Source of the DNA: a virus
Direction: 5' to 3' (one strand)
IMG/VR virus record: IMGVR_UViG_3300030110_002054
Span: 1-64,000 of that record
Length of the DNA stretch: 64,000 nt
In this document: one piece after another, positions 4,272 to 62,399 of the stretch
Layout: the number at the start of each line of letters is the position of its first letter
Numbering within the stretch: the stretch's first letter is position 1
Program-made: the position numbers and the translations under genes
The notes under the pieces: model-generated
The model's input: the letters and a program-made list of their open reading frames with translations, nothing else
Told to the model about the DNA's origin: nothing
Database searches by the model: none

Positions 4272-4448
4272 TTATTGTTTCGCCTTCTTGTATACTGAAT
4301 CCTGCCAGAAGTGACCACATTGCTTACATTGCCAGAGGTTAACTCTCCTCTTTTCGCCATCTTGATAACGAGCATTGAGTCTTCTTGGTATGTGCTTGTG
4401 ACCACAAACACGGCAAGTGACGTTTAGTTTGTCTAGTAGTCTTCCCAT
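4272..4448 (-). CDS. TFS/TFIIS-like zinc-ribbon microprotein (58 aa, not in ORF track)
   Basis: MGRLLDKLNVTCRVCGHKH...RYQDGEKRRVNLWQCKQCGHFWQD. CxxC...CxxCGHxW spacing as in TFIIS C-terminal ribbons. Coupled to the thermosome stop (TAATG). Confidence 0.6.
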   Translation of the reverse strand: MGRLLDKLNVTCRVCGHKHIPRRLNARYQDGEKRRVNLWQCKQCGHFWQDSVYKKAKQ

Positions 4449-5953
4449 TATTCCACAGGTCTCCTACCAACGATATCGTCTATCCTTAGTAGGGCAGTGG
4501 TGACTTCTGTCGCACTAAGCACAGCCTGCTTGATTAGTTTGGTAGGCTCGAATATACCAGCGTCTCTCATGTTGGTGATACCACCGTCAGTGACATCAGG
4601 CCCATGATACAGGTTGCCGTTCTGTATCTCGTGTCTCATCGCCAGCACTACATCCAGTGGGTCATGTCCTGCGTTCTCCGCTATGGTAGCAGGGATAACC
4701 TCTAGAGCGTCAGCAAAGGCCTCTATAGCCATCTGAGGCCTTCCACCCACACTAGCGCCATGATTCCTCAGATAAGAGGCCATAGCCACGAATGATGAGC
4801 CACCACCAGCAACCACCTTACCGTCTTCCTTGACGAGGCTGACCACACCCAGTGCGTCATCGAAGCCTCTCTCCACCTCATCCAGAGTGGATTGGGTAGC
4901 CCCTCTTAGAACTAGAGTGGATTGGTCACTGTCAACAATAGACTCCACGAATATGTACTGAACGTCATTGTGCTTCTGTCTCGATATCTTAACGAAGGCT
5001 GAGGCTTCTAGTTCCTCTGGAGTCTGTGCTACGCTGATGCCCAAGCATCCCCTCAGTGCCTTCATCACACTCTCAGACACTCTTCTCACCACACCTATGC
5101 CGTTCTTTCTCAGATAAGCACACACGTGGTCATGTACACCATCCCTGACAAATACTACACCCTTGCCTTCCATTCTCATCACGATGTGCTGTGCACGCTC
5201 AAGCAGGTTATCTCTACCTGACTTCTGGAACTGCGAGTAGTCTGCTGCATTCAGTTGAACCTGTACATTCTCCTTGCTCTTCTCCTCCTCAAGCCCTGTG
5301 TTGAGCAGAAGGATGTTGGTCTCTTCATCCAAGTCATAGTCTAGCACGAAGTCCTTACTCACAATCACTCCGTTGAACAAGTAGGATTCCTCGATACTAC
5401 CACCGGGTAGGCTGACAACTCTAACCTTGTCCACATCACCAGCAGCCATGACTGCATCCACACAGAGGGTGCTTACAATATCAGTAGCAGCCTCTACGGT
5501 CTTACCAGTGATTGCGGTCTTGGCTATGTCGTGTAGAACCTCATTACCTGTGTTCATTGACACTTCACTGTTCAGATAGTCTATTGCCATCTGAGATGCT
5601 TCACGATATCCTCTGCATATCACATTGGGGTGTAGACCCTTCTCAAACAACATCTCGCTGTTCGACAGTAGTTGACCTGCTAGCACCACAGTACTGGTAG
5701 TACCGTCGTAGCAGATGGTCTCCTGTGTCTTTGATATCTCTATCATCATCTTACCACCGGGATGTGCTACGTCTAACTCACGTAGGATAGTAGCACCATC
5801 GTTGGTGACTATCACGTTTCCAGCACCATCTACCATCATCTTGTCCATACCCATTGGTCCTAGTGTAGTGCGTACAGTCTCTACGATTGCCTTAGCAGCC
5901 CGTATATTCATCACTTGTGCATTGTTTGTCTTGTCATTATCGGTCATGTCCAA
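4448..5953 (-). CDS. Thermosome (group II chaperonin) subunit
   Basis: TTLGPMGMDKM, VTNDGATIL, DGTTS, LRGAT...EVERGFDDALGVV, AGGG, LLRIDD. Confidence 0.95.
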   Translation of the reverse strand: MDMTDNDKTNNAQVMNIRAAKAIVETVRTTLGPMGMDKMMVDGAGNVIVTNDGATILRELDVAHPGGKMMIEISKTQETICYDGTTSTVVLAGQLLSNSEMLFEKGLHPNVICRGYREASQMAIDYLNSEVSMNTGNEVLHDIAKTAITGKTVEAATDIVSTLCVDAVMAAGDVDKVRVVSLPGGSIEESYLFNGVIVSKDFVLDYDLDEETNILLLNTGLEEEKSKENVQVQLNAADYSQFQKSGRDNLLERAQHIVMRMEGKGVVFVRDGVHDHVCAYLRKNGIGVVRRVSESVMKALRGCLGISVAQTPEELEASAFVKISRQKHNDVQYIFVESIVDSDQSTLVLRGATQSTLDEVERGFDDALGVVSLVKEDGKVVAGGGSSFVAMASYLRNHGASVGGRPQMAIEAFADALEVIPATIAENAGHDPLDVVLAMRHEIQNGNLYHGPDVTDGGITNMRDAGIFEPTKLIKQAVLSATEVTTALLRIDDIVGRRPVE

Positions 5954-8015: not shown

Positions 8016-8720
8016 TTATACACTTCTTTTTACCTTTCTCTCTACTACCATCTTCTCTTCAGATGTGAGTGCCTGCACTATTCTACCACGCAGTACATCA
8101 CCTAGACCCTTTATCTTCTTCAGAGATTCAGGGAAGCACATCTCCTCTATGCTTCCACACTCTTCTAGAATCCTATCAGCCATGTCTTTGCCTATACCGG
8201 GTATTGCCAGTAGCATGTCGGCTCTGATATCGTTTGATGCCACTCTTCGTATTGTCCTAGCACCGTGGCTAGACGCTGGTTTGTGCAACTTGTTGTGGAG
8301 TTTGGTAATGAACAAAGCAGCCTCACTGACGTTTGGTGTGTAGAATACTTGACACTCAAAGTCACTCATGATGCGTGCTATAGTACCAGTCAACTCATTC
8401 TGTATCCTAGTGTATGTCACCTTCTTGCCTGTCTTCTTAGCCATAGCAACATACTTGTCTATACCACCGTGTATGACTAAGAAGAAGCGTTGGTAGTTGA
8501 TGTCCATGTTCTCCAGTTGCCTCCATAGATGACCACTGTGACTGGATAGAAATAGGTCGTTGATGCTCTTGGCCTCAACACAAGCCTCACCTAGAAGATA
8601 GTCCCCCACCACTAGCGGTTTTCTTATCACAGACAAACCTGCTTTCTCCGCCTTACGTATTACTGAATCACACAGTACACCCCGTTCATTGCTGTCAACA
8701 ATCATAGCAGGTCTTCTCAT
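8016..8720 (-). CDS. ERCC4/XPF-family structure-specific nuclease with HhH domain
   Basis: IVDSNE, GDY and VEAKS catalytic motifs. C-terminal IPGIG/IKGLG helix-hairpin-helix pair. Confidence 0.9.
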   Translation of the reverse strand: MRRPAMIVDSNERGVLCDSVIRKAEKAGLSVIRKPLVVGDYLLGEACVEAKSINDLFLSSHSGHLWRQLENMDINYQRFFLVIHGGIDKYVAMAKKTGKKVTYTRIQNELTGTIARIMSDFECQVFYTPNVSEAALFITKLHNKLHKPASSHGARTIRRVASNDIRADMLLAIPGIGKDMADRILEECGSIEEMCFPESLKKIKGLGDVLRGRIVQALTSEEKMVVERKVKRSV

Positions 8721-11946: not shown

Positions 11947-12074
11947 TTGTATTTCATCTCCCTTATTTCTTTTTGATACCATTTCTTTGCACAGTAGTCA
12001 CAGAGTCCAAGTGTCTTGCCGAATGTACCCTCCATCTTTTCACCACACTTTGAACAATACTCATACTCAGCCAT
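11943..12074 (-). CDS. Zinc-finger microprotein (43 aa, not in ORF track)
   Basis: MAEYEYCSKCGE...LCDYCAKK. Coupled to the PolB stop. Confidence 0.5.
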   Translation of the reverse strand: MAEYEYCSKCGEKMEGTFGKTLGLCDYCAKKWYQKEIREMKYK

Positions 12075-14455
12075 CACCACTCCTCCGGTAGACTACCTGA
12101 TAGAGAGTCTAACTTCCATTCCATAGTGCTGTACACTGACTCTAGTTTCTTGTGTATCATCTTCTCTGTGATTGTCTCGTAATCAATGTCGAACTCATCT
12201 ATCTCAGACGGGTCTCTGAATGCAACTACCTCTGCCCACATTGACTTCCTCTTACTGAACTCAATTTGGTTAGGCATTGATTCAGGAGTTCTGGATATGT
12301 ATACCCACTGTGCTCCGTCTCCGGGTTTGAATGGCTCATCAGGCTGCATGTTATCATTGTAGTACTTCGCTGCTCTAACAGCCATTGGTACTACTGTTGT
12401 GTATTGATGGAATGGTTTCTTGACTCTACCGAAGGTAGCCACATCCTCTATGTTCACAGTGCCATCTCTCAGAGATTTGACTATGGGTCTGATTGCTGCG
12501 TTGACCTCATCCTCAGAAGCACCTGTTCCTATCAGATTGAATGCTATGTCTTGCACCTTCTTAGTGATAGGAGCAGAGTTAGCGGCTTTCAACTCAAACC
12601 CTGTTACCTTCATCTTACCACTCTCAGACTCAGGCCATGTCTTGATACCGAAGTATCTGTTCTTAGTTCTCGTGCATATCCAGAAATCAAAGTAGGCCTC
12701 TAACTCCACATCAAGATAAGGCATGTCTAACTTCTTCTGTGCAGACTCAGTGAGTCTCTCCGCTAGTGCCTCAGCCTCATCGAGGGGAACTTGTATGAAT
12801 GCGGAATCAGTGTGACCATACAAGGCGTTGTAACCCATCTGCTCACTTTCCGACATTAGGAACTTGATGCTCTCCCTACCTCTGTAGGTGATGGTCTTAC
12901 CAATATCTAAGTCAGACCACATACCCCCTATCTTTCGCATGGATACCATACCATAGAGAGCGTTGACTGCAACCTTAGTAGCAGTCTGTAACATATCATA
13001 TCCCAGTCTCTCATCTGGGTCAGTCGCTTCGTACATCTTCTTCTTGTACTCCTTCCTTAGAGCCAGCATCTCGACAACGACGCTAGGTAGAAGGCCTTGT
13101 TTGGTTTGCTCCCAGTGTGTACCATTACCCACTGTCTTTATTCCCTCTCCACCATGTCCCCTCTTGGTCTCCCATGATAGGTTATCACTGAGAATGATGT
13201 TAGGATAAAGTGATGCATAGTCAAAGAGACCTACACCCTCGTGCCTACCATGTTTAGGGTCTGGTATGAAAGCAGCCTGTAGTTCCTCTCTTGAGTTGGC
13301 CCTACCTGATGGTGCTTTCTTGTCTGTCCTTCGTGCAATCAATCCCCTGAAGTATCTGGTCACCTTGTTGGTGCTTGGGAAAGCCACGCCACACAACTGC
13401 TGCATGGCTAGGTGAAAGTCGATTGCGTGTAGTTTCTCATCAACGTCTCTGAGTAGAGTGGTATCCACCAGACAGTAGTCAACGAACTCATCGAAGTACT
13501 CTCTCCAACCATTATGCACGGTCATCCCCTCTATCCTGTTAGTGAGTTTCTCACCCAGTTCCAGTCTCTGTGCCACCCAGTCTAGTTTCCTACTAGACAT
13601 CTGTCCCCTTCCTGACTTCTGCCAGATAGACTCGAAACCACTACCAGTCATACCACGTGCCGCACTGTCGTATACCAGACGACCCCTCAGGGGTTGAGCA
13701 GTGTCATCATAGAATCCTTGACCACCCTCTCTCAGGGGAGTCATGTAATGCAGAGGGCTTAGTCTGTTCATGTCCTCTAGCCTTCTAACCAAGTGTGGAA
13801 GGTCAGCCCAATTCCCAGCGTGTGCTACCAGTATGTCTGGGTTGCAGGTATCTAGGTACTGAAGGAAGCCCTCGTGCATCGCTGCCTCGCTCCCGTACAG
13901 ATGCAACACATAACCACCGTGTCTGTCTATCCAATCAGTCGAGAAGTAATCCACTCCTTCCTTCCATGCGAATACCACAGGATGGTCTTCAAAGGTATCA
14001 ACCACAGCCATGACCGTGGTGAAGTCCTCTTTGACATCCCACTCCAAGTCATAGTACCATATGCGTGGAATGAACTCAGGTATCCCGTCTGGATATCTGT
14101 TGATGATGTATTGGTCTCTGTAGTCTAGGTCAGCCTCATAGGTGTCTATTCTATCCTTGATGTTCCATAGGTTATCTGGTGAGGTGGTTGTCATCTTGAT
14201 GAGTAGTACACCATCAATACCCTCAGCCTCTTCATCGAAGTGGAACTCAGTGCCTTGGAAGTCTGCACACACCCTTGACTGTAATCTTGGATTGATGTCC
14301 TTCCTGACCCAGCAGAACGGTTTGATGTAATCATCATCCTCGGCTGTGATTATCCTCTCCTTCAATACACCATCCGCACCTCTCGTGCGTTCGTATATGT
14401 GAGGCAACTCAGTCCTATCGAAGTCAGGGTGAAACCAATCCACTATCATGCTCAT
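12074..14455 (-). CDS. polB: Family B DNA polymerase
   Basis: Exo I YYDLE, Exo III YCLVD, motif A DYASLYP, motif B KVAVNALYG, motif C YGHTDS, and KNRY. Confidence 0.97.
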   Translation of the reverse strand: MSMIVDWFHPDFDRTELPHIYERTRGADGVLKERIITAEDDDYIKPFCWVRKDINPRLQSRVCADFQGTEFHFDEEAEGIDGVLLIKMTTTSPDNLWNIKDRIDTYEADLDYRDQYIINRYPDGIPEFIPRIWYYDLEWDVKEDFTTVMAVVDTFEDHPVVFAWKEGVDYFSTDWIDRHGGYVLHLYGSEAAMHEGFLQYLDTCNPDILVAHAGNWADLPHLVRRLEDMNRLSPLHYMTPLREGGQGFYDDTAQPLRGRLVYDSAARGMTGSGFESIWQKSGRGQMSSRKLDWVAQRLELGEKLTNRIEGMTVHNGWREYFDEFVDYCLVDTTLLRDVDEKLHAIDFHLAMQQLCGVAFPSTNKVTRYFRGLIARRTDKKAPSGRANSREELQAAFIPDPKHGRHEGVGLFDYASLYPNIILSDNLSWETKRGHGGEGIKTVGNGTHWEQTKQGLLPSVVVEMLALRKEYKKKMYEATDPDERLGYDMLQTATKVAVNALYGMVSMRKIGGMWSDLDIGKTITYRGRESIKFLMSESEQMGYNALYGHTDSAFIQVPLDEAEALAERLTESAQKKLDMPYLDVELEAYFDFWICTRTKNRYFGIKTWPESESGKMKVTGFELKAANSAPITKKVQDIAFNLIGTGASEDEVNAAIRPIVKSLRDGTVNIEDVATFGRVKKPFHQYTTVVPMAVRAAKYYNDNMQPDEPFKPGDGAQWVYISRTPESMPNQIEFSKRKSMWAEVVAFRDPSEIDEFDIDYETITEKMIHKKLESVYSTMEWKLDSLSGSLPEEW

Positions 14456-17975: not shown

Positions 17976-18929
17976 TCATTGTTTCACTTCCTTTCTTAAT
18001 CTCGCTACGAAGTAGTCGAGGAATGCTTGGTCGCTGTCAGGCCATTCGTATATGTGTGTCATCATATCACCGTATACAGATAGCACTGTCCAGACTTTAT
18101 CATCTTCATCCATGTTGAACAGGGATGATAGATTCTGATAGAAGGAACGCATCACGAAGAACCTGTCCCTTCCATTGGAAACTGCCTTGTGGAATTGAAT
18201 ACGCATGTCCATCCACTCGTCTGTCAAAGCAGACAGGGCGGCTTGGCTCGGCCCACTGAAGTCACTCACCCTGTCCTTCAGGGCATGCATGTCATGCATG
18301 TGTAGTGATTCCAACACACCTACTGCTGACCTCAAGTCCCCACCCATGTAGGTGACGAGCCTTGGGAAGTAGTCCTTCCACACATCGAGAACACGCTCAG
18401 GCACTCCACACTTCTGACACACGTTGGTCAGATGCTTCGCACCCTCTTCACTGTCAACTGCCTTGAACTTGTACACCACGCACCTGCTCTTGATGGCAGG
18501 TCGTATCTTGCTCTCATCATTGGCTGTGAATATGAATAGGCAGTTCTCAGTGCTGTTCTCTATAATCTGTCTCAGTGCATCCTGTGCAGCAGGAGTCAAA
18601 CCATCAGCCTCATCGAGAAGGATGACCTTCCTGTCTGCCATGTATGGGCTAGTCTGTGCTGCCTGCTTCAGGAACACACGAATGAACTCGATGCCCCTCT
18701 CATCACTGGCGTTGCACTCATAGTAATCACAGTCTATCGCTCTGTCTAGCATCTGTCTGGCAATCACACGAGCCGCTGTGGTCTTACCCACACCACTCTG
18801 ACCAACGAAGAGCAGGGAGTCTGGATAGGAGTCGTTCGCTTTCCAGTTCAAGGCATCCTTGGTGAATGCCTGCTGTCCCACTATGTCTTCAAACTCGGTG
18901 GGTCTACCAATCTCATTCCACGACTTCAT
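17976..18929 (-). CDS. rfcS: Replication factor C small subunit (clamp loader)
   Basis: RP..F.DIVGQ, GQSGVGKT, NASDERGI, LLDEAD, AQDAL, SRC and GDLR. Confidence 0.95.
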   Translation of the reverse strand: MKSWNEIGRPTEFEDIVGQQAFTKDALNWKANDSYPDSLLFVGQSGVGKTTAARVIARQMLDRAIDCDYYECNASDERGIEFIRVFLKQAAQTSPYMADRKVILLDEADGLTPAAQDALRQIIENSTENCLFIFTANDESKIRPAIKSRCVVYKFKAVDSEEGAKHLTNVCQKCGVPERVLDVWKDYFPRLVTYMGGDLRSAVGVLESLHMHDMHALKDRVSDFSGPSQAALSALTDEWMDMRIQFHKAVSNGRDRFFVMRSFYQNLSSLFNMDEDDKVWTVLSVYGDMMTHIYEWPDSDQAFLDYFVARLRKEVKQ

Positions 18930-29608: not shown

Positions 29609-31678
29609 TCACCACTCCTCTGTTGTTCCTTTATATCGGGAAGCCCCCTTTCCACCGATGAAATCGGTTAGCATGCTCGCAGGAATCTCACCTGCATCCA
29701 CCATGCTCGTTAGCAACTCCGTTGCCAAGGCCTTCCTCTGTTCCTTCTCTCCACCATCCAGTATCCCTTTGACCACATCTCTCTTCTGAGAGACGATGCG
29801 AGAGAACCTCTCGTCAATCGTGTTGGAGACGCATAGGTAGACTGCGTGAACAACACTCGCATCCTGACCTATCCTATTCACTCTGTCCTCCGCCTGTTCC
29901 TCTACGGCAGGAGTCCACTCACGTTCCACGAACACAACCGTGTCTGCTTTGGTGAGTGTTATTCCCATGTTGGCCGACAGTATGTTAGCAACCAACACGT
30001 CTACGTTCCCTGCTTGGAAGTCCTCGATTATGGCCTGCCTCTTCTGTGCATTGACACCACCTTCGATGACTGCAACACGCAGGAACTCAGGGTTGAGTGT
30101 GTCCACTACTCGCTTCAACACATCTCTGTGATGTGTGTATACGATGACAGGCTTGCCTGTCTGTTCGTGGTACTGAGCCACCCATTCACAAGCCGAATGC
30201 ACCTTGAGCATCCCACAGTGATGTCTCAGACTCGTGAGCATGTTCAACACGAATCCCGCAGGGAGTGTGTTGTTCTGCTTGTGTTGCCTGTACTCATCCA
30301 ACCAACCAGACTGCAAGGTCTGGTATGACTTGACCCCAGATGCCGAAGGCTCGACTGCGAAGTCCTGCCTTATCTTGTCAGGTAGTTCCTCCATGACCTC
30401 CTTCTTCAGTCTGCGAAGCACGAAGTCCCTACTCACAGTGTGTAGTTCCTTCTCGTTGGAAGAACCGCGTGTGTCCCAACCGAACCCGTTGTGATATGCA
30501 TCGCAGTACCTCTGAACATACTTGAGCCATGACGGGAAGTCAACTGGTCTGAGCAGGTTCAGCGTGGTGAAGTACTCCTCAGGCCGACTGGTTATGGCAG
30601 TGCCACTGAGACAGAGCACGCTCTGTGTCTGCTTACCTATGTTGAGACAAGCCTGTGTCCTCTTGGCTGTCTTGTTCTTCAGGAAGTGAGACTCGTCGAA
30701 CACACACAGGTTGAATCCCCTGTCCATGAGTTGCTCCTCTCTCTTGCCCATCAAGTCATAGTTCACTATGGTGAAGTCAGCATCTGCTATCTCACCCTTG
30801 AAACCGTTGACCACCTCGACACTCACGTCTTTGAGCCATGTGTCAATCTCCTTAGCCCAGTTGTACTTGACACTGGAGGGACAGACCACAAGCACAGGCC
30901 ATAGTTCCCTGTGAAGGGATGCGTATGCTATCGCTTGGATGGTCTTGCCTATCCCCATGTCGTCCCCGATGAGGCATCTCCCACCCGCAAGTTCAGCGAA
31001 GCGAACACCCACGTATTGGAAGGGGTACAACTCGCAACCATCGTTGAAGGTTTCAGACAACCTCTTCTGCATCTCGTCAACCGTGTGTGCGTTTGTCAAC
31101 TCGACTGCACTGCTGATTGCTACACGCTCCGCATGTTTGGTGATGTACATCTGAACATCCTCAAGTTCGCTCACGACTGTGGCCAGTGGCTCGTAGACAT
31201 CCTCTAATCTCTTGACTAGGAATCCTGCTTGCTTTATCGGTATCATCCAACGCTTGTTGTCGTTGTCCCACTTCCTGTTAGGAATGCCTTTGACAATCTC
31301 CTTGACCTCATCCCTCAGGGATGCATCCCTGATGAAAGGCCACTCCAAAGCCAACGCACCATCCACTATGTATGCTGAACACTTGCTCGCAGTACTCGTG
31401 TTTGAAGGGGCGGATGCTATGTACTCGTCAAGAGGAGCACTGTCGTACCCGAACCTCTCGATGATGGAAGCAGTAGTCTGCAACACATCCCTGTCGAAAC
31501 GCACGTTCCACCTGCCGTCACTCCACTTGATGTTGTAGAATCCCTCAAGGGATTTCAACTCGGTCTTGAGTGCGTTGTTCAACTCAGGGTTGTAGGGATA
31601 GACTATTGCAATACGCTTCGCCTGTCTTGGATACCTACGTTGTGTGTCCTGCCTCGTGTAGTACGTCTCTGTGTACAT
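29609..31678 (-). CDS. SNF2/SMARCAL1-like annealing helicase with N-terminal HARP-like repeats
   Basis: LYPFQ, DDMGIGKT, DESH, LSGT, LRRLK and QAEDR..RIGQ. N-terminal PYNPEL...W..GRW and PF...IVKGIPNRKWD...KRW. Confidence 0.9.
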   Translation of the reverse strand: MYTETYYTRQDTQRRYPRQAKRIAIVYPYNPELNNALKTELKSLEGFYNIKWSDGRWNVRFDRDVLQTTASIIERFGYDSAPLDEYIASAPSNTSTASKCSAYIVDGALALEWPFIRDASLRDEVKEIVKGIPNRKWDNDNKRWMIPIKQAGFLVKRLEDVYEPLATVVSELEDVQMYITKHAERVAISSAVELTNAHTVDEMQKRLSETFNDGCELYPFQYVGVRFAELAGGRCLIGDDMGIGKTIQAIAYASLHRELWPVLVVCPSSVKYNWAKEIDTWLKDVSVEVVNGFKGEIADADFTIVNYDLMGKREEQLMDRGFNLCVFDESHFLKNKTAKRTQACLNIGKQTQSVLCLSGTAITSRPEEYFTTLNLLRPVDFPSWLKYVQRYCDAYHNGFGWDTRGSSNEKELHTVSRDFVLRRLKKEVMEELPDKIRQDFAVEPSASGVKSYQTLQSGWLDEYRQHKQNNTLPAGFVLNMLTSLRHHCGMLKVHSACEWVAQYHEQTGKPVIVYTHHRDVLKRVVDTLNPEFLRVAVIEGGVNAQKRQAIIEDFQAGNVDVLVANILSANMGITLTKADTVVFVEREWTPAVEEQAEDRVNRIGQDASVVHAVYLCVSNTIDERFSRIVSQKRDVVKGILDGGEKEQRKALATELLTSMVDAGEIPASMLTDFIGGKGASRYKGTTEEW
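29623..29645 (-). promoter_or_regulatory. Conserved viral promoter motif copy 4 (one mismatch)
   Basis: TTGTTCCTTTATATCGGGAAGCC inside the 3' end of the helicase gene. Confidence 0.7.
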
Positions 31679-31685
31679 GTCTGCT

Positions 31686-32210
31686 TCAAGAGTCAAGTTC
31701 CCACCTCTCATGTACGTTCTCCCCATCCTCAACACGCATGATTAACTCGTCATCCTCACGCATGCCTGTTGGAATACGCTTAGGGTCAAGCATGCGTTCG
31801 ATGGCATCTCTAACGAAGCCTGTCCTGTCCTTACCAAACATACAGTGGAAGAACACTGGTGCGTCTTGTGCTAGTGTCAGTATCAACTGAGCAGTATCAC
31901 GAATGTAGGCTTCGTCCTTGACGTAGTTCTTCTTCCCGTAGGGATTGGGTATGTGTCTGACAATCCTGTTGACGTGGTGGTCACCTGTGTGTTTCAACAC
32001 GTCGTGGCTGATGTCCGTCACCCACTCACCTGCGTTCCTGTCCAGAGACACGACGTACTTCCACGTGTGTAGATGGAAGGCATCCTCAATCTGATTCACG
32101 AAGTCGTTCTTGTCATGTATGTCATACTGGTGTCCTTTGGGTGGGTCAATCCTAGACCCATCTGAACAGAACACGTTGTCTGCAATCTGCATGTATCTGA
32201 ACTCGCTCAT
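31686..32210 (-). CDS. Cys-based protein tyrosine / dual-specificity phosphatase
   Basis: PVFFHCMFGKDRTG, the HCx5R motif. Confidence 0.85.
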   Translation of the reverse strand: MSEFRYMQIADNVFCSDGSRIDPPKGHQYDIHDKNDFVNQIEDAFHLHTWKYVVSLDRNAGEWVTDISHDVLKHTGDHHVNRIVRHIPNPYGKKNYVKDEAYIRDTAQLILTLAQDAPVFFHCMFGKDRTGFVRDAIERMLDPKRIPTGMREDDELIMRVEDGENVHERWELDS

Positions 32211-34450: not shown

Positions 34451-35173
34451 TTACTCTTCTTCGTTTTCTTTTCCTCCCTTCGGGACATATGTGGTTCTCC
34501 TGTATGCCCGCTTCTTGAGTTTCCTCTTCTCATGCTTGAGCATGGCAGATAACTCCATCTGTTCGGTTTCGATGGTTTCCATCATCCTCGCCATTCTGTC
34601 TAATCTCTGATTAAGCGCAGTTATACGAGGACTGACATCCGCTTGGATAGACTCCATCTTCTGAATGTTGGTATTCATACGACCATTCAAAGTAGCGATG
34701 CTACCTAGCACCTTATCCTTGAATGGAGTATCATCATCATTCATTGCCAATTCTATAGCCTTCGCTACCTGCTCATTGACTGCCTTCTTGAAGTGTTGAG
34801 TAGTTAGGAACCTGTCCCTAATTATCTCCTCTTCAGTAAAGGGATTAATCTCACTAGGAGAAGCATCATTACTTTCATGGTGGAAAGCCTGTCCTGCTAC
34901 TGTTGAGAGTCTTATCTCAATCTCCTCTATTCTAGCAAGAGTCTTTGGTAATTCTGACATCTGAGTTGATACCCAAGTTTCCATCGCTTTGGCATTAGCC
35001 ACTTTGACATACTGGTTATTCATACCATCTCTGTCTCTAACTAGGCCGGACTTGTTTACTCTCACCCTGTGTTCTTCACAGAATTTAGGTTGCACCATTC
35101 CTGTTCTTACTACGAATGGCCGTTGGCACTTATGTCCGTCTTCCATTACAAATTCACATCTTTTTCTTATCAT
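34451..35173 (-). CDS. Zn-finger plus coiled-coil protein, first gene of the - arm
   Basis: N-terminal C.....C...FCEEH, long heptad region and basic tail. Confidence 0.65.
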   Translation of the reverse strand: MIRKRCEFVMEDGHKCQRPFVVRTGMVQPKFCEEHRVRVNKSGLVRDRDGMNNQYVKVANAKAMETWVSTQMSELPKTLARIEEIEIRLSTVAGQAFHHESNDASPSEINPFTEEEIIRDRFLTTQHFKKAVNEQVAKAIELAMNDDDTPFKDKVLGSIATLNGRMNTNIQKMESIQADVSPRITALNQRLDRMARMMETIETEQMELSAMLKHEKRKLKKRAYRRTTYVPKGGKENEEE

Positions 35174-35239
35174 TCTTATTCCTCTAATATTGTTATGTTG
35201 ATGAGACTATATGAAGTGTCATCAATTTGAGTGTTTGGC

Positions 35240-35775
35240 AGGGGCGAACTACGCGCCGCATTACTCTTAGAACTCTCGATAGTATTCTAAGAAACCTACC
35301 TCAAGGGTTGGTATTAGCAACCTTACAGTTACGGAGAAGATATATGGGGGCTTCTCCGATTTGGTTGAGTGGTTATTGGGGGAGATGAACCGTGCTATGC
35401 CGTTAAGCGCAGGGATGCATACGATGCCGTGACTAGACATCATGGTTTTATTTATTGAAATGCTGACTACTGCTGAACCTTATGGTTCTTCTTATACCGG
35501 ACAGTAAGTTAAACATGCTCGATTAACTTAAGCAACTCCTCTCTCCAAGGATATCTCTCCCGACAACCGAAGTTGTGGGAAAAGAAGTATCCGAGTCGAT
35601 GGTCAACCCTTGTATCTTCATTCATCTTTACTACTCAAACCCCAATTCCCGACTGTGCAAATCCTCCGCTAAGATTCATTGGTCACCACATTTGTGTCGA
35701 GTTGTTATTCTCATGTTTCTAACATGAGGATGATAAAACCGAAATGCCGTTTGAGTGGGGCTAACCTCGGTTTTC
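35240..35775. ncRNA. Candidate large structured non-coding RNA or ssDNA structure
   Basis: No ORF of 60 aa or more. At least 7 local stem-loops plus a long-range helix (35365-35389 with 35621-35638), several with G-T pairs. Confidence 0.35.
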
Positions 35776-35779
35776 TTTG

Positions 35780-36060
35780 ATTTTCTCATTATTCTCATTA
35801 TTCTCACTAGTTTTCTAGAGAGAGAGAGTATAGGTGTGTGTGGGGGGTATGTTGTTGTGTATAATGTATGTTAATAATGATAATATTGAGAATATTACTC
35901 TAAATCGTTCATACTACCCATTCACGCCTTTCGGTTCTCTCATATCCGTGAGAATATTGTGAGAGAACCAAACATAAGATGCTATCTTATGAATACCATA
36001 TATATGATATTAGTATATATGATAGATATCTATACCTATATGGTATGATATGTGAGTCTT
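35780..36060. other. Candidate replication origin at the strand switch
   Basis: TTCTCA/TGAGAA short repeats in both orientations. AT-rich core with IR ATACCATATA/TATATGGTAT (35993-36046) and palindrome ATAGATATCTAT. Confidence 0.4.
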
Positions 36061-36260
36061 GATTTGACTGTGATACCAAGCCACATATATTGGTGGTTAC
36101 GAATAACTCCAATCACTTGTGTTCATTGATATGCTAGTTTGATTTCACATGCAGTCAAAGGAGGACTTTTTTCCTCAGTAAGTGCCTGTGACTACCCTAT
36201 ATTAGGGTGGGGCGACACTTACCCCTACCCTGAATCATTTATCTCTTGATTGATTTAGCA

Positions 36261-36300
36261 ACCATATGGTAGGACACTTTGTCGTAAAGACCCCATAGAG
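36261..36300 (+). repeat. Cassette site 1 (right arm only)
   Basis: ACCATATGGT aggac ACTTTGTcgtaaag ACCCCATAg. No ACAAAGT arm on the left. Confidence 0.85.
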
Positions 36301-36364
36301 GGTTAATCAGGCCCATAGATGCTTTAGGAGGGTTGGTGAGACAACCTTACAGGAGGAAAACAAT

Positions 36365-36835
36365 ATGGAATGGCAAGAATTTACGGGAATGGTTACGACC
36401 TACGCAAATGACAAGAAATCGGAGATAGACTCAGAGGATAAGACCTCTGTTCTCCGCCTCATAGAAAGAGGGAACGCAAATGAAAAGAAGCAAGCACGTT
36501 GCACTACTGCAATTAGGCTAATTATCGGAGACTACTCTGATAGCCCAACTAACAGTAGGGGCTTCTCGCTTCCAGATGATGCACAGGCAGTCGTTCAGTC
36601 TGCATATGATGCAATCGCTGGACTAGCATCCGTCTATAACGAGAACCCAGTTATAGCGGCTCTTCTTCTGCCTCACGGCAGGAGTACCGCTACTCACCTA
36701 GATGGTGAGACATGGGCAAACCGAATGGTAAGCCACATGGAAGACACGGCTCGCTCGCTATACGAGAGCAAAACATGGGACGGTTCTGAGAAGAGCCTCG
36801 TTGCTACGGTGTCCTTCACCACGGAGGATAACTGA
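36365..36835 (+). CDS. Cassette 1 protein, paralog of cassette 4 protein
   Basis: AGGAGG SD. Shares SV..LIERG..N..K..R..T.IR...SD.P...SLP and W.G....L with 38116..38721. Confidence 0.8.
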   Translation: MEWQEFTGMVTTYANDKKSEIDSEDKTSVLRLIERGNANEKKQARCTTAIRLIIGDYSDSPTNSRGFSLPDDAQAVVQSAYDAIAGLASVYNENPVIAALLLPHGRSTATHLDGETWANRMVSHMEDTARSLYESKTWDGSEKSLVATVSFTTEDN

Positions 36836-36957
36836 TTAGGCAATTTGCCTTCCCTCCTTTAGCACAGACTACTCAAGTCTTACATAGATAACAATCCGTA
36901 AGTCCTAGATGTGGTGGTAGTAATATCACTACCTAAATTCTCTAGGCTGGGTTGGGG

Positions 36958-37030
36958 CTATGGGGTTTGAAGCGACAAAGTGCCGAACCATATGGTAATG
37001 CACACTTTGTCGTGACAGACCCCATATAGG
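36958..37030 (+). repeat. Cassette site 2
   Basis: GGGGT..cgACAAAGTgccga ACCATATGGT aatgcac ACTTTGTcg..ACCCCATATAG. Confidence 0.9.
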
Positions 37031-37049
37031 TTGTAGGACAAACTAAGAC

Positions 37050-37238
37050 ATGGTTAACCTACAGAGAAGGCACTTCAGATGGCTTGCAGAGTTTGCAGTC
37101 ACGGCCCAACTAGATGAAGAACAACGAGAGCAATTGATTAATGCTTGTAGATATACAAACAGTAATTTTGATGCTGGCAGGATGAGAGAATACATGAAAT
37201 CACATCATAGGTTGATTTACATGTACGAAATGGAGTGA
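37050..37238 (+). CDS. Cassette 2 protein A (helical, L...HF..LA....TNSNFD..R motif)
   Basis: ATG about 22 nt after the CATATA box, consistent with a leaderless mRNA. Confidence 0.7.
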   Translation: MVNLQRRHFRWLAEFAVTAQLDEEQREQLINACRYTNSNFDAGRMREYMKSHHRLIYMYEME

Positions 37239-37247
37239 GGTGAGAAA

Positions 37248-37451
37248 GTGGAAAGTGAAAGAATAGTGAATGAAGCAATGAAAGTATATCAGTATGAGAT
37301 TGATGTTGGTCACTCTAAGAGTGGTTCAAATCATGTCATCATTATCAAGAGCCTAAAGGTTCGGAGTGATGACCTTGCAAATGCAATACAGGAAATACAA
37401 GCAGCACTAAGGGCATTTAATGACCTTGGGGGCTGCCCTGATTGCAAATGA
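37248..37451 (+). CDS. Cassette 2 protein B
   Basis: GTG start with GAGGTGA SD. Followed by a GC hairpin. Confidence 0.65.
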   Translation: MESERIVNEAMKVYQYEIDVGHSKSGSNHVIIIKSLKVRSDDLANAIQEIQAALRAFNDLGGCPDCK

Positions 37452-37481
37452 TGTTGTGGGGGCTATGCCCCTACTTCATCA

Positions 37482-37546
37482 GGGTGTTAGCGACAAAGTG
37501 CATTACCATATGGTAAGTTACTTTGTGTTCACGCACCCCATATAGG
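37482..37546 (+). repeat. Cassette site 3
   Basis: GGGT..cgACAAAGTgcatt ACCATATGGT aagtt ACTTTGTgt..ACCCCATATAG. Confidence 0.9.
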
Positions 37547-37565
37547 GGGGTAACAGAGTATTACC

Positions 37566-37922
37566 ATGCAAGATGAGTTAAAACAAGCATATGTTGAAAG
37601 AAAGATGGAAGCAGACCCGAATATTCGGTTCTTCAAGGAGAATGAAGTTGGGGACATACATTTGGAGAGTATGATAGCAAGGCAGAAGGAAACCTATGAA
37701 AGGGAGTATGATTCTTCAATGGCCGCAGTCATGAATATCATGGAGGAGAACGGCATTGAGGAAGATGTCTTCTTCGGATTCGATGTAATCGTCAAAGACC
37801 TTCTGATGTCACTCGCTGAGGCAAATAGCGAGATGGAAGAGCGACTTGGAGATTGGGAATACTACGCTGACGAGTTGTATGACAACATCTCATCCGCAAT
37901 CAGCGATGGTCGTCCTTGGTAA
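37566..37922 (+). CDS. Cassette 3 protein (very acidic)
   Basis: 118 aa, D/E-rich. ATG about 22 nt after CATATA. Confidence 0.75.
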   Translation: MQDELKQAYVERKMEADPNIRFFKENEVGDIHLESMIARQKETYEREYDSSMAAVMNIMEENGIEEDVFFGFDVIVKDLLMSLAEANSEMEERLGDWEYYADELYDNISSAISDGRPW

Positions 37923-37987
37923 TCATCCAGCGGTAATAGCGGCTAGGGGGGAGAGAAAATGGCCTATTCTCTCCCTCCAACATCTTC

Positions 37988-38056
37988 GGGGTAACGTTGA
38001 CACAAAGTAACTACTACCATATGGTATGATACTTTGTCATGGTCACCCCATATAGC
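37988..38056 (+). repeat. Cassette site 4
   Basis: GGGGT..acACAAAGTaactact ACCATATGGT atgat ACTTTGTcat..ACCCCATATAG. Confidence 0.9.
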
Positions 38057-38115
38057 CATCACACATACATTAACTGTCCGTGGAGGGCATTCCTAACAGG
38101 AAAGGAGATAATACA

Positions 38116-38721
38116 ATGGCAGAAAGAAATAAACAAGAACCAATGACAGATAGTAAGTGGAAAGAAAGCATAGTGCAGAAGTGGAAGAACTGGGTAAAGG
38201 ATAACCCGGATTGGGAGGACTACTATGACGGACTAATGAGTGTCCCTTCTCTAATTGAGAGAGGAACTAAGAACGCTGAGAAGAGGCGCAGAATAGCAAC
38301 TGGTATCAGAACTTGCTTCATAGCGATGGAAGTAAGTGACAACCCATTTGCGGCAGGTGCTACTTCATCACTACCTGAGAAGGTCGAGAGAACCAAGACC
38401 ACCGAATTAGGTGAACTCAAAAAGGCATACATCAACTTCTGGAAAACATGTGCGCAAGCACGAAGGTATCTAGTAAAATCGAAGCGTGGCGGAGGGGGAG
38501 TTTTCTCCTCTGCTGAGGAATTCGCTCAGTATCAGATTGACCTATTGACCAACAAGTTGTCAGCCTACTACAACGACTTCGCAGATGGCAAGACCACCAA
38601 GGACTATCATTGGAAGGGAACCCAAACCGCACTCATCAACAATATACCCCTATTGAAGAAGGCGAAAGAAGCAGACGCAAAGAAGACCGAACAAGAAGAG
38701 GCCTCCAAGGAGGCTGAATAG
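38116..38721 (+). CDS. Cassette 4 protein, paralog of cassette 1 protein
   Basis: AGGAGA SD before ATG 38116. Motifs shared with 36365..36835. Confidence 0.8.
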   Translation: MAERNKQEPMTDSKWKESIVQKWKNWVKDNPDWEDYYDGLMSVPSLIERGTKNAEKRRRIATGIRTCFIAMEVSDNPFAAGATSSLPEKVERTKTTELGELKKAYINFWKTCAQARRYLVKSKRGGGGVFSSAEEFAQYQIDLLTNKLSAYYNDFADGKTTKDYHWKGTQTALINNIPLLKKAKEADAKKTEQEEASKEAE

Positions 38722-38748
38722 GATTGTCTCCTCCACGGACAACCCTTC

Positions 38749-38815
38749 GGGGTCTTTAATGGCAAAGCATACCAACCATATGGTAGGCTACTTTGTGCCT
38801 GACTACCCCATATAC
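38749..38815 (+). repeat. Cassette site 5
   Basis: GGGGT..atgGCAAAGcatacca ACCATATGGT aggct ACTTTGTgc..ACCCCATATA. Confidence 0.9.
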
Positions 38816-38836
38816 CCCTAATTCCAGACTAAGCAT

Positions 38837-39643
38837 ATGGCAGACACAAGCGTGACATATGAAAGAACAATGAAAGTGACCTACCCTAGAGAAGGCGGTA
38901 GGTTATCATCTAAACTGATAAGGAGACTTCAGCAGATGTTGACAACCTTTGGGATATACATGGTGTATAGATGTGGTTGGGGAGAACCCGACTACAGTTC
39001 CTATGAGGAAGTCGAGAAGACGGAAACCAAGAGGTCTTACAAACTGACCTCGGATGAATCTGACTACGAGATAGTAGATTTCGGAGTAGTCGATTCGACC
39101 TACGAGCGAAGTGGTATGAAGAAAATCGTCAATGCCCTAAATGACTATGCTAGGTCGATGCCCGGTCTATCTCTGGATGAAACGGTAGTCACCACATCTA
39201 CTATGGAACTCCCAAGATGGAAAGGAGATGCGATTTGGATTAACGGTCTAGAAGAACCTCAAGTCATGATGAACCGTGACTATGGCGGAAGCCGAATGAC
39301 TTGGGCAGATGAAACCGATGAAACGGATATGACCAAGATGGAAGTATTGCTAGACCCCAGCACTAGCAATGATTCAGCAATCTTGACCTTCAAGATTTGG
39401 AAGGAGGCAACCAAGACGCAGAACAAGAAAGACATCGAGACATGGTTGGTAGATACCCCATTAGATTTGATGGGAGAGATACAGGCTCACATAGAAACGT
39501 GTCTGTCTGATGTGGGCTTCGACATCACCGAGCCAGTCATTGACTGTCACTTCGATGCGAAGACAGAAAGCCGAAGCGAGTGCGCCCCTGATATCATCGG
39601 GCGACTTCGTGACGCCAAACAACGGACGATTGACAACCAATAG
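38837..39643 (+). CDS. Cassette 5 protein (hypothetical)
   Basis: 268 aa. ATG about 22 nt after CATATA. Followed by a GCCC-TTCG-GGGC hairpin. Confidence 0.8.
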   Translation: MADTSVTYERTMKVTYPREGGRLSSKLIRRLQQMLTTFGIYMVYRCGWGEPDYSSYEEVEKTETKRSYKLTSDESDYEIVDFGVVDSTYERSGMKKIVNALNDYARSMPGLSLDETVVTTSTMELPRWKGDAIWINGLEEPQVMMNRDYGGSRMTWADETDETDMTKMEVLLDPSTSNDSAILTFKIWKEATKTQNKKDIETWLVDTPLDLMGEIQAHIETCLSDVGFDITEPVIDCHFDAKTESRSECAPDIIGRLRDAKQRTIDNQ

Positions 39644-39669
39644 TCCCCTTTGCGCCCTTCGGGGCCATC

Positions 39670-39707
39670 GGGGTTCATTTGCACAAAGTAACATACAACC
39701 ATATGGC
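39670..39707 (+). repeat. Cassette site 6 (left arm only)
   Basis: GGGGT..gcACAAAGTaacataca ACCATATGGC. No normally spaced right arm or CCCCATA box. Confidence 0.85.
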
Positions 39708-39780
39708 TTTGCTTCCAAATTTTTTTTCTTTCTATATGCCCACAAACAAGTTAATGGTCTAATGCTCACCCGCCACGCAT

Positions 39781-39999
39781 GTGGCTAATGAGGATTCGCA
39801 ACTTGAAATATACAAAGAAGCCACAAGAATAGTTAAGGACATACAGGAAGAGGTATCTAACATCCAAACTATGGGGAGGTTAGATTCTAAGTTAAACAAG
39901 ATGCTTAACAGAATTAAAGCAGATACAAAACAACTACTCAAGGAGATAAGAAGTAAGGTGTTTCACCAAACTAGCATAGATGATTGGGGTGGAGATTAA
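39781..39999 (+). CDS. Small helical protein with C-terminal PIP-box-like motif
   Basis: Ends QTSIDDW, similar to the Qxx[ILM]xx[FW] PCNA-interaction motif. Confidence 0.55.
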   Translation: MANEDSQLEIYKEATRIVKDIQEEVSNIQTMGRLDSKLNKMLNRIKADTKQLLKEIRSKVFHQTSIDDWGGD

Positions 40000-59782: not shown

Positions 59783-59789
59783 GGTGAAT

Positions 59790-62399
59790 ATGCCTCAGTC
59801 CGGTATAGAGTTTGAAAAGAAAGAAAACGCAATGACAAAGCGTGTTCTTGATTTTTTTGAGAGAGTGCGTTATGCATATCTATCTGCTAAGGATGACCCC
59901 GAAGAATACAGAAAGAAATGGGTTAAGGCAATTGAAGACATCAAAGGGGAATTCGATGACATTTCTGATTTCTCTAGAGAATTAAAAGAATACCTAAAGG
60001 AAAAAACACTTTTTTCCGAAGAAGCCAAAGACCCCACTACTAGGCAAGCCAAGGAAGTATATGACTCAATTAAAGAAATGCGATTTGAGTCTAAGGGAGT
60101 TAGTGACCCATTCTCTAAACAGTTAGGTGATGAAGTCATACCCACGCTTTTAGAAAATAAACACACGTTTGCCGCATTCATTCACTATGCAATGCGCTCA
60201 CATTCCAATGCAATACCTGAGAAGGCTTGGCAAAAATACAAATTACCAGCCGATGAACTAACACAGGGATTCATGGGATTAGATTTAGAGGAGCGTGATA
60301 TTCCTCTCTACATTACAGAACACTATGGTAATGATGAAACTGATAGTAGAAGAATCAAAACCAAGTTTAAGGAAGCCTTCAAGATTCTAGAAAAAGTATT
60401 CAATGGTCAATATGAGGAAGAAGATTGGGAGAATCTCGTTGAATTGGATTTACAGAAATCAGAAAAGAGCGCAGATGAAAAAGCAGAAATTGATTTTATC
60501 GTTCCCAACAAGCCAATGTATCGTATCTTTGAGATTGCGGATTTGAAGAAACTCAAGGGGTTCACAGGCGAATGGGTAGTTCAAGAGAAATACGATGGCA
60601 TGAGAATACAAATACACAAGACAGATGGTAATGTGAAAGTTTACTCCTACAATGAAAAGGACATTACTGACAAGTGTAAGAAACAAGTTGCTCAAATGGA
60701 AAAAAAGCAGTTTGGTGATTGTATTCTAGATGCTGAACTATTATTGTTTGATGGTGATGAGGCACTACATCGTGCTGCAACTGTTACCCACATCTTCAAG
60801 AAAGAAACGAAGCATAGTCTAAGAGCGCACGTTTTTGACATAATGAATCACGAAGGAAAGTCTATTGCAGACGAACCACTCAAAGAAAGAATAAACATTC
60901 TCTTCTATCAATATGGTCAACACTCTTCTGAGGATTTGGCATTCCCATCAAAGAAAGATACGCGACTTGCTGATTCTCTTGATGAGGTCGAGGAGTATTC
61001 AAAGAAAATTATGGAAATGCCAACTTCAGAAGGAGTGGTAATCAAGGACATGGAATCAACCTATTACATCGGAAATAGAAAGAACCCGAAGTGGGTTAAG
61101 TGGAAGAAGTTCGTAGACTTAGATGTAATAGTCTTAGATGTCAAGAAAACCAAAAGTAACCTTCATTCCTACTCATTGGGCATAGGGCCACTATCAGGAG
61201 AAGAGACTAGAGAATACAAGACTCAAGAAATTGATGGGAAAGCATACATGCCCGTAGGTAAGGCAATGAATACTAAAACCAAAGTCAAGGTTGGAGACAT
61301 CGTTAGAGTAAAGGTAGATGAGGTCAAGAAAGGAAAGAATGATTTCAAACTAATTTCTGCTCAAGTGATAGAACTACCTGAAGTAGAAACTACTGATAAA
61401 ATTGAGACACTTGAAGAATTAGCCACGAAGACAAAGAAATCCTTAGATTCGGGAATGCACTATGTTTTCGGAGATAAGATAGGCGACTTGTTCAAACCTG
61501 ATACTGGCCTCGATAAAAGTCTCCATATCACCGACCACGTTCATGGCATAGCAGAAGTCATTCTAAAGGGTGAATTGGATGGTTTCACCATTTATGGTTT
61601 CAAGGGTGATTCGCTGATGGCGAAGAATGCTCTTTACGATATTGAAAAATGGAAGGATGACCTTACTGGAATTTTGAAGACAAAGCGTTCTGAATTAAGA
61701 ATAGGCATCCGTAATGAAATCATAGAAAGAGGAAAGCCATTGAACATTGACAAGATAGAAGAATTCGTTGTAACGAACTATCCCAAGACATATGATGAAT
61801 TGTATAATTCTGATGATGGCCGCTTAATGTCATGGCTGAAACAACAGGAAGACCTAATCTATGAGCATCCAAATAAGTTCGATGCCAAGAAGGATGTGCT
61901 TGAGAAGGATGTTGAGATAAAGAAAAGACAAGAGACTAACAAGTTCGATGACAAATCTAGCAACCTCGGTGAATTTTCTGTTGTTCTAACAGATGATAAT
62001 AACCTTAACTTAATTATCAATTACAGAGATAAGAAGATGGCTTGGCTATTGGATATAGAAGATAGTGAAGACATATACAACTTATTTGGTAAGTCAGGTA
62101 AATTCCCTGCTATGGTATTAGACAAAGTGGGAACTGCGAAAAAAACCATAGATAAGGGGGAACTTGAGATAGGGGTACAAAGAAATGGTTATCATGAATA
62201 TAGACTAGATGGCAATAAGTTCCAAACTAGATTGCATATACGAATAGTCCCACTTAATGAGCAAAAAAGATGGTTGGCATGGACTGGAAAGAAACAGGAA
62301 ATGCTAGACCGCAAGGCAGATGATGGTGTTTGGGACATTACTGAAGATAAGTATGCAGATGTAGAGTTACCTCCATCTGAAAACGAAGACGCTAAATAG
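59790..62399 (+). CDS. lig: ATP-dependent DNA ligase with long N- and C-terminal extensions
   Basis: Motif I QEKYDGMR, ILDAE, VFDIM, EGVVIK and WVKWK, plus an OB domain. Confidence 0.9.
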   Translation: MPQSGIEFEKKENAMTKRVLDFFERVRYAYLSAKDDPEEYRKKWVKAIEDIKGEFDDISDFSRELKEYLKEKTLFSEEAKDPTTRQAKEVYDSIKEMRFESKGVSDPFSKQLGDEVIPTLLENKHTFAAFIHYAMRSHSNAIPEKAWQKYKLPADELTQGFMGLDLEERDIPLYITEHYGNDETDSRRIKTKFKEAFKILEKVFNGQYEEEDWENLVELDLQKSEKSADEKAEIDFIVPNKPMYRIFEIADLKKLKGFTGEWVVQEKYDGMRIQIHKTDGNVKVYSYNEKDITDKCKKQVAQMEKKQFGDCILDAELLLFDGDEALHRAATVTHIFKKETKHSLRAHVFDIMNHEGKSIADEPLKERINILFYQYGQHSSEDLAFPSKKDTRLADSLDEVEEYSKKIMEMPTSEGVVIKDMESTYYIGNRKNPKWVKWKKFVDLDVIVLDVKKTKSNLHSYSLGIGPLSGEETREYKTQEIDGKAYMPVGKAMNTKTKVKVGDIVRVKVDEVKKGKNDFKLISAQVIELPEVETTDKIETLEELATKTKKSLDSGMHYVFGDKIGDLFKPDTGLDKSLHITDHVHGIAEVILKGELDGFTIYGFKGDSLMAKNALYDIEKWKDDLTGILKTKRSELRIGIRNEIIERGKPLNIDKIEEFVVTNYPKTYDELYNSDDGRLMSWLKQQEDLIYEHPNKFDAKKDVLEKDVEIKKRQETNKFDDKSSNLGEFSVVLTDDNNLNLIINYRDKKMAWLLDIEDSEDIYNLFGKSGKFPAMVLDKVGTAKKTIDKGELEIGVQRNGYHEYRLDGNKFQTRLHIRIVPLNEQKRWLAWTGKKQEMLDRKADDGVWDITEDKYADVELPPSENEDAK

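Follow-up and report, generated by a model that had tools for sequence, protein, structure and literature searches.

A predicted 5'–3' mRNA panhandle in a virus-only protein family encoded within an array of promoter-box cassettes

Main

Five short cassettes (C1 to C5) lie at a strand switch, between 36.2 and 38.9 kb, in the 64,000-nucleotide (nt) window analysed here (the whole stretch of DNA presented above, part of the 76.8-kb IMG/VR virus record IMGVR_UViG_3300030110_002054), and two of them, C1 and C4, encode paralogous proteins whose predicted mRNAs pair a 5' untranslated region (UTR) with a 3' UTR around the whole open reading frame (ORF). An earlier note on this DNA, made from its letters, had proposed that this pairing is a selected mRNA panhandle. 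Comparative sequence analysis strongly supports that proposal, through covariation among homologues, a bias towards G-U mismatches on the sense strand, anchoring of the helix at the probable transcription start (+1) and restriction of the pairing to one protein family. To our knowledge, the established cases of long-range pairing between 5' and 3' UTRs are a few single bacterial genes; here, compensatory evidence of the sort that mutagenesis normally provides comes from natural variation over dozens of homologues.

Pairing between the untranslated regions of C1 and C4

In C4, tgtccgtggagg (38075-38086) can pair along its whole length with cctccacggaca (38730-38741; 12 of 12 base pairs (bp)), and the helix extends imperfectly inward, with 38087-38095 pairing with 38719-38727, a 2-nt bulge at 38728-29 and the UAG stop codon (38719-21) falling within it. 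In C1, positions 36320-36332 pair with 36852-36864 at 11 of 13 positions (4 bp, a UU/UU loop and 7 bp), and weaker inner pairs reach 36838, 3 nt past the stop codon. Both pairings, including the imperfect extension in C4, had been described in the earlier note and were recovered at these positions. Its further statement that the two stems differ in sequence holds for the homologues, in which arm diversity is real, but only in part within the window, where the stems of C1 and C4 have a GGAGG(G)/CCUCC core in common and are therefore not fully independent of one another. The features of the two transcripts (all on the plus strand) are as follows.

36320-36347: 5' strand of the C1 panhandle (outer pairs 36320-23 and 36326-32; inner pairs 36335-40 and 36345-47; inferred RNA 5' end at G36321)
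36351-36356: Shine-Dalgarno (SD)-like AGGAGG of C1, outside the helix
36365-36835: C1 ORF, 156 amino acids (aa), member of the all-alpha family
36838-36864: 3' strand of the C1 panhandle (inner pairs 36838-40 and 36844-49; outer pairs 36852-58 and 36861-64)
38075-38095: 5' strand of the C4 panhandle (inferred RNA 5' end at G38076)
38103-38107: SD-like AGGAG of C4, outside the helix
38116-38721: C4 ORF, 201 aa from the ATG, paralogue of C1
38719-38741: 3' strand of the C4 panhandle, including the stop codon, with the 2-nt bulge at 38728-29
38742-38753: small C4 hairpin ACCC-UUCG-GGGU, followed by CUUUAA; it abuts the 3' arm, and homologous hairpins occur 0-4 nt past the 3' arm in most family members

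When the real UTRs were compared by RNAduplex with 2000 shuffles of the 3' UTR, the duplex of C4 (-33.5 kcal/mol) was equalled by 1 of the 2000 and that of C1 (-28.9 kcal/mol) by 22, and the same test gave no duplex for the UTRs of C2, C3 and C5. Minimum free energy folds of the whole transcripts contained the long-range helix for both C1 and C4; centroid folds kept it in C4 but not in C1.

Conservation and covariation

Homologues were gathered by tblastn of fetched loci (approximately 50 family members) and by a profile search run against 1.8 billion representative proteins, which returned 299 clusters, all of them stand-alone proteins of approximately 150-200 aa; the C1/C4 family is virus-only. 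Close C4 relatives at 63-78% identity were also identified. A scan of one metagenome added identical copies only. These homologues, to which the earlier note had looked for a decision, mostly keep the complementarity between 5' and 3' UTRs, and it covaries. Across 31 non-redundant cassettes, cognate 5'UTR/3'UTR duplexes averaged -36.5 kcal/mol, as against -22.3 kcal/mol when partners were permuted (z = -15.6; 0 of 20000 permutations), and for 22 of the 31 leaders the cognate 3' UTR was the best among all 31 partners. Meanwhile, the arm sequences themselves diverge widely among members (for example, ttgcttagaaggg, tgtcccgaaag and tgtagtcgtagaggtgcg), some members have near-perfect duplexes of 20-25 bp, and genomes with two or three paralogues give each its own arm sequence within the same geometry. 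Because homologous UTRs share partial arms, a statistic based on the longest ungapped helix was too noisy to use (10.9 versus 8.6 bp), hence our reliance on duplex energy and covariation.

Unguided RNAalifold folding of full-length transcript alignments placed the long-range helix outermost in two subgroups, A2 and A3. In A2, 95% of alignment cells were paired, with double (compensatory) changes in 5 of 10 pairs and a covariation score of 0.564, compared with 0.343 in shuffles (0 of 500 as high), and pairing fell to 45-60% when the partner was slid by 1-3 columns; in A3, double changes were found in 9 of 12 pairs. Both stems persist in the closest relative of this locus (L009; C1 identity 71%), where a G-C pair of the C4 stem has become G-U and the two C1 arms have each been shortened by one base in a coordinated manner. 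Consistent with folding as RNA, the sense duplex was the more stable one in 22 cassettes and its reverse complement in 9 (P = 0.005), which indicates that the mismatches are G-U pairs on the coding strand, and non-cognate UTR pairs had no such sense-strand bias.

The pairing is tied to the protein family rather than to the array. Among 184 cassettes delimited by the promoter box described below, a duplex z score below -2 was found in 72% of the 58 family cassettes versus 2% of the 126 others, and the two 'other' cassettes with a duplex proved to be remote family members (hidden Markov model (HMM) E about 1e-6), such that, after this HMM reassignment, 0 of approximately 120 non-family cassettes behind the same box had a duplex, as against approximately 69% of family cassettes. 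Among family cassettes with a leader of at least 30 nt, 89% had one.

Position of the helix in the transcript

Each cassette has upstream of it a palindromic box, ACAAAGT-N5-ACCATATGGT-N5-ACTTTGT, followed approximately 8 nt downstream by a TATA-like motif, CCCCATA[TG]A, the last base of which we denote e. The promoter elements (all on the plus strand) are as follows.

36261-36282: box 1 (C1), palindromic core ACCATATGGT plus right arm ACTTTGT; first cassette, without the left arm
36291-36299: C1 TATA-like motif CCCCATAGA, approximately -30 to -22 from the inferred start, an offset as in C2-C5
37020-37050: TATA-like motif of C2 (37020-28) and an ATG at motif end +22; looks leaderless, no panhandle
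37536-37566: TATA-like motif of C3 (37536-44) and an ATG at motif end +22; looks leaderless, no panhandle
38002-38038: box 4 (C4), full palindrome ACAAAGT-N5-ACCATATGGT-N5-ACTTTGT
38046-38054: TATA-like motif CCCCATATA of C4
38806-38837: TATA-like motif of C5 (38806-14) and an ATG at motif end +23; looks leaderless, no panhandle

In both C1 and C4, the TATA-like motif ends 21 nt upstream of the first arm base, and e+22 is a G, the second base of the 5' arm. Across the non-family cassettes of all loci, the commonest ATG position corresponds to this offset (36 of 87 lie no more than one base from it), and C2, C3, C5 and many non-family genes therefore look leaderless. Metatranscriptome contigs from two studies, which cover only 35381-39404 (a DNA run covers the flanks too), begin at 36321 in C1 and at 38076 in C4, that is, exactly at e+22. 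Such contigs cannot prove transcript ends; two exact matches with an independently derived register are nonetheless not easily set aside. Within the family at large, the same offset is where the 5' arm most often begins on its outer side (11 of 35 cases exactly, 24 of 35 within 4 nt). Together, the offset of the leaderless ATGs and the RNA contig starts put the probable RNA 5' end at the start of the helix, which would begin at +1, in line with the prior suggestion that the 5' strand starts at the transcription start site, approximately 22 nt past the promoter box.

Most members have a small G+C hairpin 0-4 nt downstream of the 3' arm. In most, too, the duplex extends inward as far as the stop codon; the SD site and AUG lie 13-27 nt beyond the helix, with the SD site never within the conserved helix.

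Several other sequence features touch these elements. A tandem 20-nt duplication (CCCATAGA... twice) occupies 36292-36331, between the TATA-like motif and the 5' arm of C1, and another locus (L104) has the same CCCATAGA immediately upstream of its arm. Box 2 (window 36954-37030) is fully symmetrical and has a reverse-oriented TATA-like motif, CCCCATAG, on the minus strand at approximately 36959-36967; if active, it would direct antisense RNA into the 3' UTR and 3' arm of C1, a region without RNA contigs. C2 (37008-37341) is the only cassette of the five without a metatranscriptome contig, though the DNA run covers it.

Proposed function and alternatives

To assess what the pairing might do, we compared partition-function folds of 26 family members with and without the 3' UTR. 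With it, the first 14 bases had a lower probability of being unpaired (0.25, down from 0.38; P = 0.0005) and there was no change for the ribosome-binding site (RBS; 0.60 versus 0.60, P = 1.0), suggesting that the panhandle hides the 5' end and spares the RBS. Among the functions that had been offered for it at the outset, stabilization is the best fit to the less accessible 5' end, whereas a hok-type fold-back block of translation is not supported, because the RBS is predicted to be equally open either way.

We therefore favour a model of mRNA stabilization through 5'-end sequestration, which, judging from these folds and from analogy with known systems, we regard as about as likely as not and as the most probable of the readings considered. 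Unlike their leaderless neighbours, mRNAs of the C1/C4 family would carry a leader of 40-50 nt with an SD-like site, and an imperfect duplex of approximately 12-30 bp would join this leader, beginning with its first transcribed base, to the 3' UTR. The inner limits of the duplex would be the stop codon on one strand and a point approximately 15-25 nt upstream of the AUG on the other; its outer end would usually adjoin the small G+C 3' hairpin. The RNA would be closed as a panhandle, with the 5'-triphosphate end buried and the RBS open, and this could protect leadered mRNAs against decay from a free 5' end and perhaps also against 3' exonucleases. Leaderless siblings may be shielded by the ribosome itself, and the panhandle may compensate for a near-unique leadered state within a leaderless set.

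A bacterial parallel exists in the hbs gene of Bacillus subtilis, in which pairing of a 14-nt 5'-UTR sequence with a site immediately before the terminator restricts cleavage by RNase (Braun, Durand and Condon 2017, PMC5737220). There, as here, 12-14 nt of the 5' UTR pair just upstream of a 3' hairpin or terminator while the RBS stays free, and the effect in hbs is protection from ribonuclease cleavage and mRNA stabilization; leader complementarity of at least 12 nt just upstream of a 3' hairpin, with an RBS predicted to be free, is what we find in this family. The hbs pairing differs in having its 5' partner inside the leader instead of at +1 and in belonging to one gene of one bacterium, whereas the helix described here runs from the first base to the stop codon, covaries across a viral family and probably operates in an archaeal host. 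A second comparison, with the Staphylococcus aureus icaR mRNA and synthetic anti-SD pairing (PMC12697547, for the general effect), applies to C1 and C4 in that a pyrimidine-rich 3' sequence (here CCUCC) pairs with GGAGG hundreds of bases upstream. In icaR-type systems, the real SD site is targeted, resulting in repression and decay; here the GGAGG is a decoy at the 5' end, the true SD site is spared and unpaired in duplex models, and the arms of most homologues are not SD-like.

A number of points weigh against the selected, stabilizing panhandle. The RNA contigs stop at 36776/36846 and 38655, short of both 3' arms, and the presence of both strands in one RNA is therefore a prediction. Approximately 30% of family cassettes, mostly those with short leaders, have no significant duplex, and only 6 non-family cassettes have leaders of at least 30 nt, so that 'family-specific' and 'leader-specific' are inseparable. 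The host, probably an archaeon of Marine Group II, is identified from gene content only (see below). Finally, the stabilizing effect is inferred, and a terminating ribosome must melt the inner helix, by which a translational or timing role could equally be served.

Such a role, as a translational switch or timer of the hok kind, is the alternative that survives best, although we consider it unlikely. The closed form would be poorly translated or inert, with 3' trimming, a factor or the first ribosome switching it on, or else the closeness of stop and start would promote re-initiation. The geometry does match the tac/fbi pairing of hok (PMC9841398), in which the extreme 5' end likewise pairs with the 3' end around the whole ORF, covaries within a gene family and stabilizes a closed form, and such a pairing of 5'-terminal with 3'-terminal sequences of the same mRNA is what our folds predict; moreover, most members have their stop codon within or beside the inner helix, and 13-27 nt separate the end of the helix from the AUG. 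A joint action of 5' and 3' UTRs in growth-phase translational control is also established in haloarchaea, where both UTRs are required together (Brenneis and Soppa 2009, PMC2636863), but no base-paired structure was defined in that case, whereas the pairing predicted here is explicit. The switch is disfavoured by the equal RBS accessibility with and without the 3' UTR, by the SD site never being in the conserved helix and by the failure to find a conserved alternative partner for the 5' arm. The products differ too: hok encodes a peptide of approximately 50 aa, sequesters its SD site in the closed form and is activated by 3' trimming and antisense RNA, whereas the present ORFs encode soluble all-alpha proteins of 155-200 aa behind an SD site that is predicted to be open, with no hydrophobic toxin of approximately 50 aa with an overlapping leader ORF and, in silico in 26 members, no sequestration of the SD site in the closed full-length form. 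The product is not a hok-like peptide, and nothing indicates a toxin.

A related and still more speculative idea, to which we assign a rather small likelihood, is that of an RNA-only closed loop, in which the stop codon and 3' hairpin, brought beside the 5' end and SD site, would run the few SD-dependent mRNAs amid a leaderless early programme, coupling termination to re-initiation and mRNA lifetime to translation, perhaps with the encoded protein reading the structure.

That protein figures again in the somewhat more doubtful possibility of a protein-binding platform, with the terminal helix and hairpin recognized by shape, possibly by the family's own product in an autoregulatory manner. The strict tie of the structure to one protein family despite highly diverged arms, the uniform geometry of paralogues with their own arm sequences (two or three per genome) and a protein without known fold or function would suit this possibility, but no RNA-binding motif or fold match was found in the protein, and the link to the family may only mirror the restriction of long leaders to it.

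It is very improbable that the duplex is a processing stalk, cut by a double-strand or bulge-helix-bulge endonuclease in the manner of rRNA processing stems to give a trimmed or, after ligation, circular mRNA. The 20-25 bp near-perfect duplexes of some members would fit this reading, and archaea are reported to circularize RNAs whose ends are held in a stem (PMC9014305, PMC7038931). Nevertheless, the RNA contigs start at the outer edge of the helix rather than at a cut within it, none of them was reported as back-joined or as containing a joint, and inspection of the RNAduplex and RNAalifold structures (with no dedicated bulge-helix-bulge search) revealed neither two 3-nt bulges on opposite strands 4 bp apart nor a nick geometry for circularization. 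Lastly, the arms can hardly be DNA-level terminal inverted repeats of mobile, integron-like cassettes that recombine instead of folding as RNA: the cassette order does differ from that of the closest relative and a palindromic box does recur between cassettes, but a recombination structure should mark every cassette and none of the approximately 120 non-family cassettes of the same arrays has such repeats, the arms differ between paralogues of one genome and so provide no common recombination site, the mismatches are G-U on the sense strand, the arms are placed relative to transcription start, stop codon and hairpin, and recombination at the boxes explains the shuffling more simply, as with the PeSL motifs of T4-type phages (PMC2839356, PMC4122927). 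No integrase was seen near the array among the proteins scanned (the scan was not exhaustive).

The protein family

The paralogy of C1 and C4, first noticed from a handful of common motifs, is confirmed by BLASTP (E = 2e-6, 38% identity over 66 aa), and both proteins, with those motifs, fit an alignment of 32 family members. Conserved motifs of the family include an N-terminal W, G[ND]xN, RGxxSxLP, HG[RK][ST]GGGxF, WDGS and an acidic C-terminal EEE; in many members, the acidic tail, ...EEE or ...QEEE, lies downstream of WDGS. AlphaFold2 confidently models C1 as an all-alpha protein of seven helices (pLDDT 90.7). C1 to C5 had no match in PHROGs or Pfam, a sequence profile search of the PDB gave no match, Foldseek against the PDB gave none below E = 1, the matches from VIA wide were confined to generic three-helix bundles (Z up to 6.8, residues 1-66) and the ESM Atlas offered no lead.

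Host and virus type

The window encodes several archaeal-type genes (thermosome, RFC, Hef/XPF, PolB and SNF2), from which the host is probably archaeal. The annotated genes are as follows.

4448-5953, minus strand: thermosome subunit (445 bits)
8016-8720, minus strand: Hef/XPF nuclease
12074-14455, minus strand: PolB (family B polymerase)
17976-18929, minus strand: RFC small subunit (168 bits)
29609-31735, minus strand: SNF2 helicase
59784-62396: 871-aa protein, of which residues 253-459 form an ATP-dependent DNA ligase domain and the long flanks are unassigned

A UvrD-like helicase is also encoded in the left arm of the window. Thermosome and SNF2 genes are traits of group A magroviruses, which have been assigned to Marine Group II archaea (Philosof et al., PMC5434244), and by gene content matched to these published traits the virus looks like a group A magrovirus. 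A bacterial host, for example a member of the Bacteroidota (suggested by TTTG motifs and the best TerL matches), was considered and dropped given the thermosome, RFC and Hef genes. Scans for sigma-70 promoters and intrinsic terminators gave results close to shuffle expectation. The cassettes are compatible with transcription of the archaeal type: the TATA-like element is at approximately -30 to -22, the start is of the pyrimidine-purine kind, and most mRNAs look leaderless. An SD-like core is present for half of the larger ORFs.

Magroviruses rank with the most abundant viruses in surface ocean water, and we know of no cultured magrovirus or magrovirus host. The magrovirus literature that we searched makes no mention of promoters. 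The locus offers a coherent first picture of magrovirus early gene expression, consisting of a palindromic box and TATA-like element, a start approximately 22 nt further on, mostly leaderless mRNAs and one leadered family that would be closed by a covarying 5'-3' helix. Burial of the 5' end as a general means of archaeal mRNA stabilization thereby becomes testable, with an element that is small and portable.

The cassette array and other observations

The box has no copy in the record outside the C1-C5 array, and it occurs in at least 119 stretches of IMG/VR contigs, often in several copies per contig, with many of these contigs 80-100 kb long. A search of 596 Gb of cellular genomes with the box pattern gave 64 scattered single matches in unrelated taxa, a number that by rough estimate is at or below chance, and no host link therefore follows from them. 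The cassettes are in the order C1-C4-C2-C3-C5 in L009 (2900-6400, aligned with window 36200-39700) and C1-C2-C3-C4-C5 here, which by analogy with PeSL motifs implies shuffling at the repeated boxes. PeSL cassettes likewise consist of small early genes, each behind a repeated composite motif and shuffled in order between relatives; unlike them, the array described here has a 37-nt palindrome and a TATA-like element with archaeal-type spacing, and PeSLs do not pair around the ORF. Searches of Rfam with positions 35000-39900 gave no match, a tRNA search found none, and neither blastn of the region nor tblastn of one family member matched cultured phages.

Two more TATA-like motifs (CCCYATAT) occur without a palindromic box, one at 35340-35349 on the minus strand, facing a 240-aa gene at 34451-35173, and one at 36195-36203 on the plus strand, just upstream of box 1. 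The 871-aa ligase protein is far bigger than usual viral ligases. An ORF-poor segment at 35381-35690, whose metatranscriptome contigs are the deepest of the region in three RNA runs (word depth 63, 21 and 8), may correspond to a long leader or to a non-coding RNA that the virus makes in abundance; it had no match in Rfam, and neither of its strands folds better than shuffled sequence (z about -0.4 and -0.5).

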